This document shows, piece by piece, positions 30,320 to 34,929 of a DNA stretch of 53,844 bases; the first letter of the stretch is position 1; the number at the start of each line of letters is the position of its first letter. The notes below the pieces were generated by a model. The model was not told where the DNA came from and ran no database searches. It saw only the letters and a program-made list of their open reading frames with translations. This DNA comes from Candidatus Omnitrophota bacterium. Its GTDB lineage: Bacteria > Omnitrophota > Gorgyraeia > Zapsychrales > JBDRMG01. The stretch spans positions 1 to 53,844 of the forward strand of contig JBDRMG010000010.1 of NCBI GenBank assembly GCA_043812495.1, read 5' to 3'. A program made the translations under genes and the position numbers.

Positions 30320-31861
30320 ATGGATGAAAAGATCCAAATCGGTCAACCTCATCATCCCCGTCCTCAGTGGCGCTCGCGCGTCGGTTTTATCTTTGCGGCC
30401 TTAGGTTCGGCCATTGGCTTGGGTAATATCTGGCGCTTTTCCTATTTGTGTTATAAAAACGGAGGCGGGGCCTTCCTGATACCCTATACGCTTGCCCTTA
30501 TTACCGTCGGGATTCCCCTGATGATCCTAGAGCTTGGCATCGGCCATCGCATGCGCGGCTCGGCACCCATGACTTTCGCGCGCATCAATCGCAAATGGGA
30601 ATGGGCCGGTTGGTGGGCGGTCAATTGCGCGATGTTCGGCATCATGATGTATTATTCGGTCGTCATTGCCTGGTGCCTTAGTTATGTGTTTTTTTCTTTC
30701 AATTTAAGCTGGGGACAGGATGCCAATGCCTTCTTTTTTAAAGAGTTTCTCCAGATCAGCTCGGGACCGGCCGAAATCGGAGATATCCGCGCTCCTATCT
30801 TAGGGGCCTTAAGCGGTGTCTGGTTTTTAAGCTGGCTGATTGTGTTCTTCGGTGTGCAAAAGGGTGTGGAACGCGCCAATAAGGTTTTTATGCCGCTTTT
30901 GTTTGCGTTAACGCTGGTTCTTGTTTTATGGAGCGTGAACCTCAAAGGAGCTTTCAAAGGACTTGAAGTTTATCTGAAGCCGGATTTTTTGCTTCTTGCC
31001 AAACCCCAGATTTGGGTGGATGCCTTTTCGCAGATTTTCTTCACGCTGTCTTTGGCGTTCGGCATTATGATCACGTACGCCTCTTATCTGCCGCGCAAGG
31101 CCGATATCGTGATTGATGCGGTAGCGATTAGCGTCGGCAATTGCTTATATTCTTTTGTCGCCGGTTTTGCGGTTTTCGGGACGCTTGGGTATATGTCGTA
31201 CTCGACGGGAAAGCCGGTGGCGGAAGTCGTGCGCGAATCCATTGGCTTAGCGTTCGTGGCGTATCCGCAGGCGATTAGCCTTATGCCCGGAGGACTCGCC
31301 AACCTTTTCGGTGTTTTGTTTTTCTCGATTCTTGTCGTGGCCGGGCTCTCAAGCGCGATTTCGCTGGTGGAAGCGTTCACATCGGCGGTTGTGGATAAAT
31401 TTCATTATTCTCGAAAGGTCGTGGTGTCGGTTCTGTGTATTTTCGGATTTATGGGAAGCATGATCTTTACCGCGCGAAGCGGTCTTTATTGGGTCGATAT
31501 CGTCGATCATTTTATCACGCATTACGGGCTCGTGGTGGTGGGGATTCTGGAATGCGTTTTGGTCGCCTGGATTTTTAAATCTCAAAAACTGCGTGAGCAT
31601 ATCAGCCACGCGGCCTCGGAGGCCTCGGCCTGGACCTGGCCTAAGGTTTTGAAGCTTTGGGAAATCAGCATCAAATTTATTACGCCATCAATCCTCATCG
31701 TTATTTTGATTAACGATATCATCAAGGAAGTCGCCAAGCCTTACGAAGGATACCCGTGGCTTTCGATTGTTTTGATCGGCCGGGATTGGTTGTTGTTTGC
31801 CCTGATCGCGGCTTTGGTGATCGCGGCACGCCCGTGGAAGCGGGATTTGGATGCGGATTAA
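30320..31861 (+). CDS. Sodium-dependent transporter, neurotransmitter:Na+ symporter (SNF) family
   Basis: GSAIGLGNIWRF, NGGGAFLIPY, QIFFTLS. Confidence 0.96.
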   Translation: MDEKIQIGQPHHPRPQWRSRVGFIFAALGSAIGLGNIWRFSYLCYKNGGGAFLIPYTLALITVGIPLMILELGIGHRMRGSAPMTFARINRKWEWAGWWAVNCAMFGIMMYYSVVIAWCLSYVFFSFNLSWGQDANAFFFKEFLQISSGPAEIGDIRAPILGALSGVWFLSWLIVFFGVQKGVERANKVFMPLLFALTLVLVLWSVNLKGAFKGLEVYLKPDFLLLAKPQIWVDAFSQIFFTLSLAFGIMITYASYLPRKADIVIDAVAISVGNCLYSFVAGFAVFGTLGYMSYSTGKPVAEVVRESIGLAFVAYPQAISLMPGGLANLFGVLFFSILVVAGLSSAISLVEAFTSAVVDKFHYSRKVVVSVLCIFGFMGSMIFTARSGLYWVDIVDHFITHYGLVVVGILECVLVAWIFKSQKLREHISHAASEASAWTWPKVLKLWEISIKFITPSILIVILINDIIKEVAKPYEGYPWLSIVLIGRDWLLFALIAALVIAARPWKRDLDAD

Positions 31862-31896
31862 TTTGACTCTTTACTTATTGAAAAGGAGGACATAGT

Positions 31897-32298
31897 ATGG
31901 TGACTGAAATGAGAAAGAGGCTTTTGCCTGCTGTGGTTGTTTTGCTTGCCTTGTCTTTGAGCGGATGCTGGCCGCTTATCTTCGGCACTCTGGCCGCGGC
32001 CGGCGGTTATGCCGTAAGCAGAGACACGATTCAGGGGGAAACGGAAAAAGATTTTGATGATGTGTGGCATGCCGCTATGGCTGTCGTACCCGTGATGGGT
32101 TCGGTCGTCTCGGAAAGTTATGAATTGGGCCATATCGAAGCCATCGTCAACGGCGCTAGGGTCAAGGTGGATGTTTTGCAGATGACATCTTCGATTGTGC
32201 GTTTGAAGGTGAAGGCGCGCAAGAATATTTTTCAAAGCCTCGTCAATGCCCAGCAGGTGTTTATCAAGATTATGAACAAAGTGAATGGAGAAGATTGA
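31897..32298 (+). CDS. DUF3568-like lipoprotein
   Basis: Lipobox LSGC followed by Gly/Ala-rich segment (AAAGGYAV); AAGGAGG RBS. Confidence 0.65.
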   Translation: MVTEMRKRLLPAVVVLLALSLSGCWPLIFGTLAAAGGYAVSRDTIQGETEKDFDDVWHAAMAVVPVMGSVVSESYELGHIEAIVNGARVKVDVLQMTSSIVRLKVKARKNIFQSLVNAQQVFIKIMNKVNGED

Positions 32299-32324
32299 TC
32301 GCTGGTTTGCGGCTAGATCGGTCA

Positions 32325-32536
32325 TTGATACTTCGACGGCGCCAAAGTCTTGGTTGCCTTTGGACCGGAAATCAAGTAGTTCGAACTGCTCGTCGTATTT
32401 CAAGCTATACGGTGTTCAGTTGAAGCGGCGCCGCTCAGTATAACAACCCTGCCCGCCCCGCCGCTTCGCGGCGAAAGCCGCGGGCCGGGGGAGCAAATCC
32501 CGGCCTGAAAGGCCGGGGAGCGTCGAAGGGTTGACA
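32325..32536. repeat. Nested CTTCGAC..GCTCAG..GTCGAAGGG palindromic cluster ending at a -35 box
   Basis: TTGATA-CTTCGAC...GCTCAG...GTCGAAGGG-TTGACA; same architecture as 5698-5901. Confidence 0.7.
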
Positions 32537-32558
32537 TCTTCAGAAACTCTGGTAAAAT
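32531..32558 (+). promoter_or_regulatory. sigma70 promoter of the tRNA-Phe locus
   Basis: TTGACA-N16-TAAAAT with TG extension. Confidence 0.65.
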
Positions 32559-32676
32559 GTTGCATCTGAAAACAAAAAAAGGTTATGCCAATCCTACTTC
32601 GCTAAAAGGCTTTCGCGTTTAGCTTCGTAGGATTTGGCAAAATCTTTTCTCAATAAATGAAATTATTGAAGATTTT

Positions 32677-32950
32677 GCCAAGATAGCTCAGGTAGTAGAG
32701 CGCGGGACTGAAAATCCCGGCGTCCCCAGTCCTTCGATGCGATTCGGCATGATGGCGATTAACAAAGAAATTTTCCGCCGAGGTAGCTCAGGTAGTAGAG
32801 CGCGGGACTGAAAATCCCGGCGTCCCCAGTGCAAGTCTGGGCCTCGGCACATGTTATTCAACAAAAGCCATCATGCCGAATCTTACTCAGGATGGTGAGC
32901 GACCCCGCCAAAGGCGGGGGAGTCGAACCATGCAAGTCTGGGTCTTGGCA
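32677..32950 (+). pseudogene. Outer tRNA-Phe(GAA) interrupted in the T-loop by a 201-nt insert (pseudogene or spliced tRNA)
   Basis: 32677-32730 (54 nt) plus 32932-32950 (19 nt) rebuild a 73-nt cloverleaf with its own acceptor stem GCCAAGA/TCTTGGC. Confidence 0.8.
32777..32849 (+). tRNA. tRNA-Phe(GAA), intact, nested inside the interrupted copy; CCA not encoded
   Basis: Acceptor GCCGAGG/CCTCGGC, anticodon loop CTGAAAA, T arm CCCAG-TGCAAGT-CTGGG. Confidence 0.93.
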
Positions 32951-33072
32951 TTCTTCTTCGCCAAAGTGTTTTCGCCTTTGGCTTCGAAGGAATGCCACGC
33001 CGATTTTTGTCGGAACACTTTTTTGACAAAAATCGGCAGGGCACTTTTCTTTTGGTAAAGGGAGGCCTGTCT

Positions 33073-33270
33073 ATGCTTAAGACAATTGTTGTGATCTGTG
33101 CGGTCATTGTTTTTTCCATTTGCCTTTATTCTTTTCTACTCGGTAACGGCGTCTTTAAAGGCGATTTCGATAACGAAGCCCTGAGCTGGTATTTTCTAGC
33201 CAAGGGCATTTTTTGTGGGTTGTCCTTGTATCTGTCGTATCTGATCATTGAGTCGCTGAAGAAGAGGTAG
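33073..33270 (+). CDS. 65-aa small membrane protein
   Basis: GGAGG RBS; two hydrophobic segments; WYFLAKGIF. Confidence 0.65.
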   Translation: MLKTIVVICAVIVFSICLYSFLLGNGVFKGDFDNEALSWYFLAKGIFCGLSLYLSYLIIESLKKR

Positions 33271-33406
33271 GGAAGAAAAATTTGCCGTTCCGGCTTCGCT
33301 TCGAATAATTAGAAATGCCGATCCGGCTTCCCTTCAAAACTTTCGTTTGGAAGCTTCGCCGGATTCGGCACTTGATTTTTCTAAATAAATATTGTTGAAA
33401 TCAAGT

Positions 33407-33479
33407 GCCGACGTAGCTCAGTTGGTAGAGCAACGGTTTCGTAAATCGTGGGTCGGAGGTTCAACTCCTCTCGTCGGCT
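33407..33479 (+). tRNA. tRNA-Thr(CGT); CCA not encoded
   Basis: Acceptor GCCGACG/CGTCGGC, anticodon loop TTCGTAA, T loop TTCAACT. Confidence 0.95.
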
Positions 33480-33530
33480 TAAGATGTGTAATTTAAAACC
33501 CAGCCACAGTTTAAAAGTTCTTTTTAAAAG

Positions 33531-33650
33531 GAAATAGTAAAATTTTAATTTGGTGTTCCCCGAGTCCGCCACAAACTTTGGCGGACTCGGGGTCAATTCG
33601 CGCATATGATTTATACTCCCTATCGTTCGTATAAATCATGCGCTCATTGA
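33531..33650 (+). repeat. Modular double-hairpin element, copy 7
   Basis: Hairpin A nearly identical to copy 3; GGTCAATTCG-CGCAT..ATGCG-CTCATTGA directly before the MFS ATG. Confidence 0.85.
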
Positions 33651-33651
33651 A

Positions 33652-34929
33652 ATGAAGAGACTCAAGGAAAGCTTTAAAAACAGAAACTTCTTTTGCCTCT
33701 GGCTGGCGCAGATCATCAGTCAGTTCGGCGACCGCATCAATCAAATGGCATTGATTGGGCTGGTGGCTGAGCGCGGCTTGAATTCCACCTTTGATCTGGC
33801 CAAACTTCTGTCCTTCAGCATCATTCCCGTCTTTATCGTCGGGCCCATCGCGGGGGTTTACGTCGACCGTTGGGACCGGCGCGTAACGCTTTTTGTCTGC
33901 GATTTCCTGCGCGGCTTTCTGGTCTTATCGATCCCCTTCTTGTTTATTTACCGCGAATCCATGATTCCCATTTACGTGATTGTTTTTTTGGTGTTTTCCT
34001 TAAGCCGTTTCTATGTACCGGCCAAGATGTCGATTATTCCGGAATTGGTCCCACAAACGGATCTCTTGATGGCCAATTCGCTTGTCAGCACAACCGGTAT
34101 GATCGCCTTTGTGCTGGGATGTTTATTCGGAGGGTTGATTGTCGAAAATTTAGGTTCGGCCGGCGGGTTTTTCTGGGATGCCGTGACCTTCTTTGCCTCA
34201 GGAGTCCTGGTTTTATCCATCAGCTTGGAAATTAAAAAGAGTTTTAAAACACGAGAGCTCATCCGAGCCGGTTTAAAGACATCTAAAGAAATGATCGATG
34301 TTATTCATAAATCCGTGATGAGCGAAATCAAAGAAGGCGTCAGCTACTTAGTGAACCACAAGGATATCCGATTTATCATCAGTATATTGTTTATCCTTTT
34401 TTCGGCAGCCGGCGCGGTGTATGTGGTCATCATCGTCTTCATTCAAAAGGCTTTTAGCACGATCACGCGGGATTTGGGATTTCTCGCGGTCTTTTTGGGC
34501 CTGGGGCTTTTTGCGGGCGCGATTCTCTACGGCCGTTTCGGAAGGAAATTCTCGCGCATTAAAACCATGTTTTTCTGCCTTATCTTAGGGGGTCTCATTC
34601 TGATGACCTTTGCCTCGTTTGTTGAATATGTCCATAATTTTGCTTTGGCCGCGCTGTTGGCCTCAATTCTCGGATTTGTCGTCGGGCCCATCATGATCGC
34701 CACCAACACCGTTGTGCATGAAGTAGCCGATGAAAGAATGCTCGGCAAGGTCTTCAGTTCCCTTGAAATCGTGATTCACTTTGCGTTTCTTGTCAGCATG
34801 CTCTTAAGTTCCTTCTTGGCCGAACGCATAGGACATTTTGTGATTTTGATGTCTGTTGGTGTAATATTTGCATTTGTGGGTCTGGGCGGACTTTTGACTT
34901 ACAAAAAACAGATTGTCTTTAAAATTTGA
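33652..34929 (+). CDS. MFS transporter
   Basis: About 12 TM segments; LWLAQIISQFGD and GVYVDRWDRR (motif A). Confidence 0.93.
   Translation: MKRLKESFKNRNFFCLWLAQIISQFGDRINQMALIGLVAERGLNSTFDLAKLLSFSIIPVFIVGPIAGVYVDRWDRRVTLFVCDFLRGFLVLSIPFLFIYRESMIPIYVIVFLVFSLSRFYVPAKMSIIPELVPQTDLLMANSLVSTTGMIAFVLGCLFGGLIVENLGSAGGFFWDAVTFFASGVLVLSISLEIKKSFKTRELIRAGLKTSKEMIDVIHKSVMSEIKEGVSYLVNHKDIRFIISILFILFSAAGAVYVVIIVFIQKAFSTITRDLGFLAVFLGLGLFAGAILYGRFGRKFSRIKTMFFCLILGGLILMTFASFVEYVHNFALAALLASILGFVVGPIMIATNTVVHEVADERMLGKVFSSLEIVIHFAFLVSMLLSSFLAERIGHFVILMSVGVIFAFVGLGGLLTYKKQIVFKI

Follow-up and report, generated by a model that had tools for sequence, protein, structure and literature searches.

A tRNA-Phe Gene Interrupted by a Palindromic Repeat Element Carrying a Second, Intact tRNA-Phe Gene in Candidatus Omnitrophota

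Mobile DNA that enters an essential single-copy gene is usually lethal, unless it is spliced out again, as introns and inteins are, or the end of the gene is rebuilt, as is the case with islands in tRNA genes. Here, we describe a locus in a Candidatus Omnitrophota bacterium in which the insert itself brings a new copy of the gene. On contig JBDRMG010000010.1 of assembly GCA_043812495.1, a stretch of 53,844 nt called the window below, a tRNA-Phe(GAA) gene is split in its T arm by a 201-bp insert. The ends and center of the insert belong to a family of palindromic repeats that we call E, and its interior holds a second, complete tRNA-Phe gene. We call such an arrangement a nest. The explanation that we favor, with a probability of about 0.72, is the in-place replacement, at the DNA level, of an essential tRNA-Phe gene by a cargo-carrying palindromic mini-element, with the outer halves left as recent relics. 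This would be a third solution to the problem in miniature: 201 bp, no protein gene, and an insert that supplies what it breaks.

The closest published analogue is tRNA-dependent lysogeny, in which a phage disrupts an essential tRNA gene and supplies the same tRNA (Guerrero-Bustamante and Hatfull 2024, PMC10865867). The nest shares both features, the disrupted gene and the same tRNA supplied. In such lysogeny, however, the mobile DNA is an entire temperate phage, which has a tyrosine integrase and uses a common core of ~10 bp (PMC10865867). The insert of the nest, in contrast, is 201 bp long, has the tRNA as its only gene, lacks an integrase, shows a junction overlap of 1 nt, and ends in palindromic hairpin repeats. 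With no phage and no integrase, the tRNA-Phe nest is not a member of the tRNA-dependent lysogeny class. The principle of supplying a copy has so far been documented for whole phages.

Short palindromic repeats that are moved in trans include REP/REPIN sequences with RAYT, the miniature elements derived from IS200/IS605, and the Correia elements. E is like all of these in being short, hairpin-forming, non-coding, and multi-copy, and in having no regular target duplication. It differs in that it is near-identical across many phyla, whereas the other repeats are lineage-specific, and in that its copies were not found to have a transposase gene next to them. We know of no REP/REPIN, IS200/IS605-derived, or Correia element that carries a tRNA gene in its internal loop. 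Archaeal tRNA introns at non-canonical positions and split tRNA genes provide another parallel, as there the gene is interrupted in a loop and the interruption is flanked by complementary sequences. The nest has both properties, with the interruption at position 53/54, but it lies in a bacterium in which no splicing endonuclease was found, it has no bulge-helix-bulge, and a full replacement gene sits inside. The locus bears on the origin of split and interrupted tRNA genes.

Two GIY-YIG systems are also relevant. The Ssn nucleases cut single-stranded DNA next to their own hairpin repeats (Chenal et al. 2025, PMC11893778). Small single-domain GIY-YIG genes among hairpin repeats are likewise present in the genome studied here; the Ssn family is a plausible relative of them, and cutting of the Ssn type would suit insertion directed to loops. 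The sections of that study covered here describe no tRNA nests, and E is rarely near a GIY-YIG frame (2/80 loci). SegB, a free-standing GIY-YIG homing endonuclease in the tRNA cluster of phage T4, favors inheritance of its own tRNA region (PMC2330249). The SegB system operates from phage to phage and involves no broken outer gene (PMC2330249). Unlike SegB, the tRNA-Phe nest has no nuclease gene; a tRNA-Asp nest in the same genome, like SegB, does have one. No description of such tRNA nests or of E was found in literature searches on GIY-YIG proteins, tRNA genes, palindromic elements, and Omnitrophota.

The tRNA-Phe Nest and Its 201-bp Insert

The genome (G000) is a 1.94-Mb draft of 66 contigs, 90.5% complete, and the nest lies in the middle of its 53.8-kb contig. 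The features of the locus, and the further nests discussed below, are collected in Table 1. A repeat finder reports a 73-nt direct repeat at the locus and a 20-nt second copy of the tRNA 3′ end at 32931–32950, 90% identical. When the outer halves are joined in silico, by slicing 32677–32730 and 32932–32950, they form a 73-nt gene that ARAGORN calls as tRNA-Phe(GAA), with seven Watson–Crick acceptor pairs and the cloverleaf as its minimum-free-energy fold. A preliminary description of this DNA, made from the letters alone, had proposed this reconstruction, and all the sequences that it quoted are indeed present at their positions. It had also placed the insertion in the T loop. The site stands, between tRNA positions 53 and 54, but the borders are better set at 32730–32930, since copies of the E family begin TCCTTCGA. 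One T, either that at 32730 or that at 32931, can be assigned to either side, so the junction overlap is 1 nt. As found in the DNA, the outer 5′ part scores 25.8 bits, under the gathering score of 29 for Rfam RF00005; the inner gene, called to 32849/50, scores 61 bits against the same threshold.

Comparison of the joined outer gene with the inner one shows differences at 4 of 73 positions (4, 7, 66, and 69). These are the acceptor pairs 4:69 and 7:66, each changed on both sides, while the core is 100% identical over 47 + 12 nt. Because two compensatory acceptor pairs are the sole differences, the halves once made up a single functional gene, and the inner gene is a second functional allele and not a decayed copy. 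The preliminary description had used the compensatory changes to argue against a simple duplication by the assembler; the argument is sound, although it is no substitute for spanning reads. There is no decay at all in the outer halves. The inner gene is the only intact tRNA-Phe among the 41 tRNA genes of the genome, a draft ~90% complete. A tmRNA gene is also present, which marks the organism as bacterial.

The insert has extra DNA at both of the positions at which E has an internal loop. On the right, this is a small GC hairpin. On the left, it is a 142-bp module consisting of a 16-bp stem, whose arms are perfectly complementary, as the preliminary description had noted, and a 110-nt loop in which the inner tRNA is flanked by 20 and 17 nt. 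The insert contains no open frame. As a whole, the 201 bp are unique in the genome, but the parts recur. A comparison of the right-hand 82 nt with the 400 other genomes of the phylum finds the last 32–40 nt at 89–100% identity in several, and the stretch from center through hairpin to foot is 100% identical over 32 nt in one of them (G322). The core of the GC hairpin, CCCGCC..GGCGGG, was considered as a repeat in its own right and set aside, as its 19 occurrences in the genome have unrelated flanks. A 19-nt match to the arm region in another genome sits in coding sequence and is attributed to chance.

Table 1. Features of the tRNA-Phe nest and its surroundings (window coordinates), and further nests in the same genome (contig:coordinates).
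Feature	Position	Strand	Remarks
Sigma-70-type promoter	32531..32558	+	TTGACA, 16 nt, TG-extended TAAAAT; 11/12 matches
CTTCG-foot hairpin in the leader of the unit	32590..32634		Recurs on at least 10 other contigs, with several copies next to tRNA genes
Outer tRNA-Phe, 5′ part, positions 1–53	32677..32729	+	Acceptor GCCAAGA, D arm, anticodon arm GAA, 5′ strand of T stem
Composite insert, E-family hairpin element plus cargo	32730..32930	+	201 bp
Left foot of E, TCCTTCGA	32730..32737	+	8/9 to consensus TCCTTCGAC
Left arm of perfect 16-bp inverted repeat	32741..32756	+	Encloses the inner gene
Inner intact tRNA-Phe(GAA)	32777..32849	+	Acceptor GCCGAGG/CCTCGGC, A18, G55; ARAGORN, Rfam
Right arm of 16-bp inverted repeat	32867..32882	+	100% complementary to left arm
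Center of E, CTCAGGATGGTGAGC	32886..32900	+	4–5-bp stem, loop GGATGG; 15/15 to consensus
Small GC hairpin, CCCCGCC AAA GGCGGGG	32903..32919		Between E center and right foot
Right foot of E, GTCGAACCA	32922..32930	+	9/9 to consensus
Outer tRNA-Phe, 3′ part	32931..32950	+	T loop, 3′ strand of T stem, acceptor TCTTGGC, A73
Second CTTCG-foot hairpin	32947..32995		Stem begins in last bases of outer tRNA; 96% identical copies in three other families of the order
Terminator-like hairpin with T run	33000..33023	+	Likely end of the tRNA-Phe transcription unit
tRNA-Cys nest	C54:403-617		Outer gene split at 32/33 by 156-bp insert
tRNA-Arg(TCT) nest	C36:2885-3224		Inner gene within a perfect 16-bp inverted repeat of unrelated sequence
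tRNA-Asp nest	C66:14500-15180		Outer 1–56, 69-nt E-like hairpin, small GIY-YIG gene, intact tRNA-Asp, outer 3′ end

In relatives, the tRNA-Phe locus holds a single uninterrupted gene in 16 of 16 cases, and at none of these 16 loci is there a partial tRNA-Phe copy or a GIY-YIG frame within ~1.5 kb. The 5′ strand of the acceptor reads GCCGAGA in 11 of the 16, GCCGAGG, the inner type, in two, GCCGAGT in another two, and GCCGGGG in one; the outer type, GCCAAGA, is found in none (0/16). The inner and outer copies are thus each one compensatory pair away from the common form, GCCGAGA, as would be expected of two alleles that diverged while both were functional, and not of a gene with a duplicate in decay. 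An exact match to the inner allele (74 nt, 0 differences) is found in contigs of two other metagenomes, with unrelated flanks. The inner and outer genes of the nest have different flanks.

The scan of 32300–33600 for promoter-like sites gave two, the one listed in Table 1, upstream of the outer copy, and one ahead of a tRNA-Thr gene. None lies inside the insert, and the site at 32531–32558 is the sole candidate ahead of the inner tRNA. A closely similar promoter lies upstream of tRNA-Phe in G001, the sole genome of the same family. The placement of the promoter and its likeness to that of G001 indicate that the outer copy occupies the ancestral position and that the inner gene must use the promoter of the outer one.

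The G001 locus has a peculiarity of its own. In that assembly, tRNA-Phe falls at a break between two contigs, which overlap by 55 nt up to T54 (C21:1-55 and C35:9009-9063), an arrangement that could hide a second context of the tRNA-Phe 5′ half. As a nest, it was rejected: it looks like an overlap of assembler k-mer length, and no 3′ remnant follows the gene. Among the other tRNA genes of G001, 4/31 have partial copies of 14–16 nt, far weaker than in G000, and the one GIY-YIG gene lies between tRNA-Leu and a copy of its 3′ end.

The tRNA-Phe genes show an unusual pairing of loop residues. The T loop TGCAAGT, with G55 and not U55, and the D loop AGGTAGTA, with A18 and not G18, are found here and in the tRNA-Phe of 12/16 relatives; the other 4 have a canonical T loop, all with G18. 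The same paired A18/G55 swap is seen in two tRNA-Thr genes (L015 and L019).

The E Family and Further tRNA Nests

The E family is defined in this analysis by the feet TCCTTCGAC and GTCGAACCA around the center CTCAGGATGGTGAGC, in this order and on one strand. Its contexts in genomes of the phylum reveal a modular layout, as follows: left foot, an optional hairpin, center, an optional hairpin, and right foot. The 15-nt center is matched, with at most 2 mismatches, at 13 places in the genome, 8 of which have feet, the window copy included. The palindrome family that the preliminary description had recognized by its motifs CTTCGA..CTCAG..GTCGAA is, accordingly, real.

E reaches far beyond this genome. 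A search with center plus right foot of one genome per prokaryotic species gave at least 122 loci in many bacterial phyla. Among the matches listed are Omnitrophota, Planctomycetota, Zixibacteria, Binatia, several groups of Patescibacteria, and Thermodesulfobacteriota, and further Opitutaceae, Auribacterota, Elusimicrobia, Ignavibacteria, and Nitrospirales. The statistics that follow rest on 80 of the at least 122 loci, with 82 copies, mostly of 39–41 nt. In the consensus of the 44 copies of 39 nt, positions outside two 3-nt internal-loop stretches are at least 90% invariant. An element of 39 nt that is almost invariant across many phyla needs explaining. No match to E was found in 50,697 phage records, 72,556 plasmids, and viral contigs. 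At seven loci from different phyla (L043, L049, L062, L063, L075, L094, and L117), E lies inside one larger repeat with near-identical flanks on both sides; these shared flanks indicate that E also spreads within a bigger conserved composite.

The insertion sites of E have some common properties. Target duplication is not regular, 51 of 73 copies having none. The flanking letters favor C at −3 (40/73), G at −1 (36/73), and T at +1 (39/73), and the tRNA-Phe site, which reads C, A, G before the insertion and T after it, fits this preference. Stems of at least 5 bp are formed by the flanks of 12/73 copies, against 2.3 expected and a maximum of 8 in 200 re-pairings, an excess which marks hairpin loops as favored sites of E.

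The termini of E, 5′ TCC and 3′ CCA, are unpaired and are complementary to the two halves of its central loop, GGATGG. It follows that a joined right–left end of E would mirror its center. Each of these 12 letters, termini and central loop together, is at least 90% conserved across phyla. The complementarity may point to a guide-type recognition of the ends of E.

The tRNA-Phe nest does not stand alone in its genome. Of the 41 tRNA genes, 11 have partial copies of themselves within 1.5 kb (expectation value <1e-3), with breakpoints mostly in loops. Three further nests are present (Table 1). The insert of the tRNA-Cys nest begins and ends with an E-like variant in the opposite orientation and holds the only intact tRNA-Cys. 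Its joined outer halves form a valid tRNA, and 4 of the 5 differences from the inner gene make up two compensatory acceptor pairs. At tRNA-Arg(TCT), the outer gene is again a compensatory acceptor variant, and its middle part is lost. At tRNA-Asp, the E-like hairpin is lodged in the outer copy at 53/54, the site also used in the tRNA-Phe nest, and the borders of the cassette carry an 8-bp direct repeat. The paired compensatory changes in the acceptors of three nests are possible marks of a donor lineage or of immunity to a nuclease. The Phe and Arg(TCT) nests also have near-equal dimensions, with loops of 110 and 112 nt and summed flanks of 37 nt each.

The genome encodes several enzymes of interest. 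Of 16 GIY-YIG matches, 15 are small single-domain frames, and 10 are no more than 520 nt away from a tRNA or tmRNA gene; a further GIY-YIG frame follows a 21-nt tRNA-like fragment on contig C51. The only NCBIfam match of these proteins, to a group I intron endonuclease, is below threshold. Eight matches to Y1 (HUH) transposases are spread over contigs C64, C2, C45, C4, C47, C31, C43, and C5. Three of them lie in open frames of ~330 residues, which we take to be longer than the short Y1 transposases. None of the eight Y1 matches is beside an E copy, the nearest being ~3 kb away on C2. No IS110-type match was found in the genome, and the two tyrosine recombinase matches (PF00589) are both on other contigs.

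The Proposed In-Place Replacement and Its Alternatives

We propose that the nest arose as follows. A resident tRNA-Phe gene, with the acceptor GCCAAGA/TCTTGGC and a promoter of its own, would have been opened where the T stem meets the T loop, between positions 53 and 54. A 201-bp mini-element with the feet and center of E would then have inserted, bearing the 16-bp-stem module in an internal loop of E. The cargo, a complete tRNA-Phe gene (GCCGAGG/CCTCGGC) with ~20 nt of native flanking sequence, would derive from a closely related lineage. The inner gene would now supply all the tRNA-Phe of the cell, being read from the old promoter, across the dead 5′ half, and released by RNase P, 3′ trimming, and CCA addition, with the 16-bp stem perhaps insulating its fold. 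It is tempting to speculate that the 16-bp stems persist either for shielding the inner tRNA from an outer 5′ half of identical sequence or for a role as processing stem. Such an insertion would be tolerated because its cargo is the same tRNA, and selection would keep only those insertions that bring a working copy. Since nothing has decayed, the insertion would be recent.

We infer that element and cargo arrived together, that insertion took place in single-stranded hairpin loops, and that the mobilizers were the small GIY-YIG nucleases of the genome, its Y1 (HUH) transposases, or both, acting in trans. Loops are recurrently chosen, namely the T, anticodon, and D loops of tRNAs, the internal loops of E, and the loops of flanking hairpins, which suggests cutting and joining in folded single-stranded DNA. 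Y1 transposases act on DNA in this form. So do GIY-YIG nucleases of the Ssn type (PMC11893778). If replacement of this kind is general, it would be a route for the exchange of tRNA alleles between lineages, and it would explain the many tRNA 'ghost' fragments in the small genomes of uncultured bacteria.

The preliminary description had left two alternatives side by side, a palindromic element with a replacement copy of the gene that it disrupts and an intervening sequence removed at the RNA level. The first is supported by the ends and center of E, by the inner gene being the sole intact one, and by the further nests; the second does not fare well, as discussed below.

Several observations weigh against in-place replacement. 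No read or contig spanning the structure was found in sequencing runs, each of which matched at most 9% of the sampled words and none of which was an RNA data set, and contigs built from the four best runs contain tRNA-Phe-like sequences with other flanks, none bridging a junction. There is no nuclease or transposase gene at the tRNA-Phe nest, no enzyme is tied to E, and a general link between E and GIY-YIG is rejected by the presence of such a frame at only 2/80 E loci. Nor is E generally linked to tRNA genes, none of the 80 loci having one within 450 nt. Neither of the 16-bp arms recurs elsewhere in the genome. E with a cargo of 125–155 nt is seen in this genome only among 401 of the phylum, in a search by exact pattern that misses variants, so the unit of E plus tRNA is so far a one-off rather than a mobile family of proven standing. 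In-place replacement also gives no account of the way in which a tRNA gene would enter a hairpin loop inside E. Finally, the intact outer halves fit a recent event but also their continued use. Among the matches listed for the left junction (18 nt, from the T stem into the E foot) in metagenomes, the 80 examined were all due to chance in GC-rich coding DNA and none lay in a tRNA; genuine matches beyond those listed may have been missed.

The alternative that survives best, though we regard it as unlikely, is local repair: a break in the T loop would be mended by out-of-register copying from the sister chromosome, giving a nested duplication (5′ half, a copy of flank, gene, and flank, and the 3′ end), and the hairpin repeats would enter the junctions later. 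In its favor, the outer and inner core are completely identical over 47 + 12 nt, the breakpoints of the partial tRNA copies in the genome are mostly in loops, and nucleases are plentiful next to its tRNA genes. However, two compensatory acceptor pairs, each in a working state, are not expected of a fresh local duplication, and such differences occur likewise at tRNA-Cys and tRNA-Arg(TCT). Moreover, the feet of E form the exact borders of the insert, leaving no sign of hairpins that were inserted separately at a later time, and the flanks of the inner and outer genes are not alike.

An artefact of assembly, in which reads from two strains or two loci were joined through the shared 47 nt, is improbable. 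The draft is in 66 contigs with no spanning reads found, and the G001 contigs that break at tRNA-Phe illustrate that this gene troubles assemblers. Nevertheless, under any threading of the reads, the junctions between tRNA 5′ half and E foot and between E foot and tRNA 3′ end have to be present in reads, and any other threading would set GCCAAGA against CCTCGGC, giving an acceptor with mismatches. The insert is also a well-formed member of a repeat family, the structure lies far from the contig ends, and nests of the same design are found on other contigs.

Removal at the RNA level is more doubtful still. Here, the inner tRNA would be cut out of the transcript and the outer halves either joined, for example by RtcB, or left as a nicked pair, so that two tRNA-Phe species would be made. 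Molecules that start GCCAAGA, end TCTTGGCA(CCA), and are joined across 53/54 are what this reading implies. In its favor, the outer halves are undecayed with their acceptor pairs intact, and in the predicted fold of 32677–32950, the outer acceptor stem and the 16-bp stem close around the inner cloverleaf (z = −6.05). The genome has an RtcB ligase gene, with one match of 601.8 bits, but this is weak evidence, as RtcB is common in bacteria (among the controls, it was found in 6/10 bacterial and 4/4 archaeal genomes). The tRNA splicing endonuclease (PF01974), in contrast, has 0 matches in this 90.5% complete genome, while the control matched in 4 archaea. By inspection, the junctions form a symmetric 3 × 3 internal loop, TCC facing CCA, beside a helix of 5–6 bp, and not a bulge-helix-bulge, in which two 3-nt bulges are staggered by 4 bp. 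Furthermore, an intact inner gene is retained in every nest, although removal of the inserts would make it unnecessary, and outer copies elsewhere are partly deleted, as relics would be. This half of the preliminary description is therefore not upheld. A variant of the same idea, to which we give the least credence, treats the insert as a T-loop intervening sequence that encodes a tRNA: the inner tRNA would first be freed by RNase P and 3′ processing, and the halves, held together through the acceptor and 16-bp stems, would stay paired, be trimmed, and be joined, so that one transcript would yield two tRNA-Phe species.

Two further candidates were rejected, a group I intron, because Rfam (expectation values up to 1, 31500–34500) returned only tRNAs and one chance hairpin and because the site is 53/54 and not the anticodon loop, and an integrase island, because the 201 bp hold no recombinase gene, the junction overlap is 1 nt, and PF00589 is matched only on other contigs.

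The Transcription Unit and Neighboring Repeats

The two CTTCG-foot hairpins of Table 1 belong to one family, with CTTCG on both arms, and they bracket the outer tRNA-Phe. Beyond the second of them, an imperfect 19-bp palindrome at 32993–33043 overlaps the terminator-like site; it accounts for a chance Rfam match to a plant microRNA family (24.6 bits vs. 59). On the other side of the unit, just 5′ of the promoter, lies a GC-rich structured repeat (32427–32533), with copies on contigs C56, C41, C29, C1, and C53 at 87–100% identity. The cores of this repeat are 93–98% identical in genomes of other families of the order.

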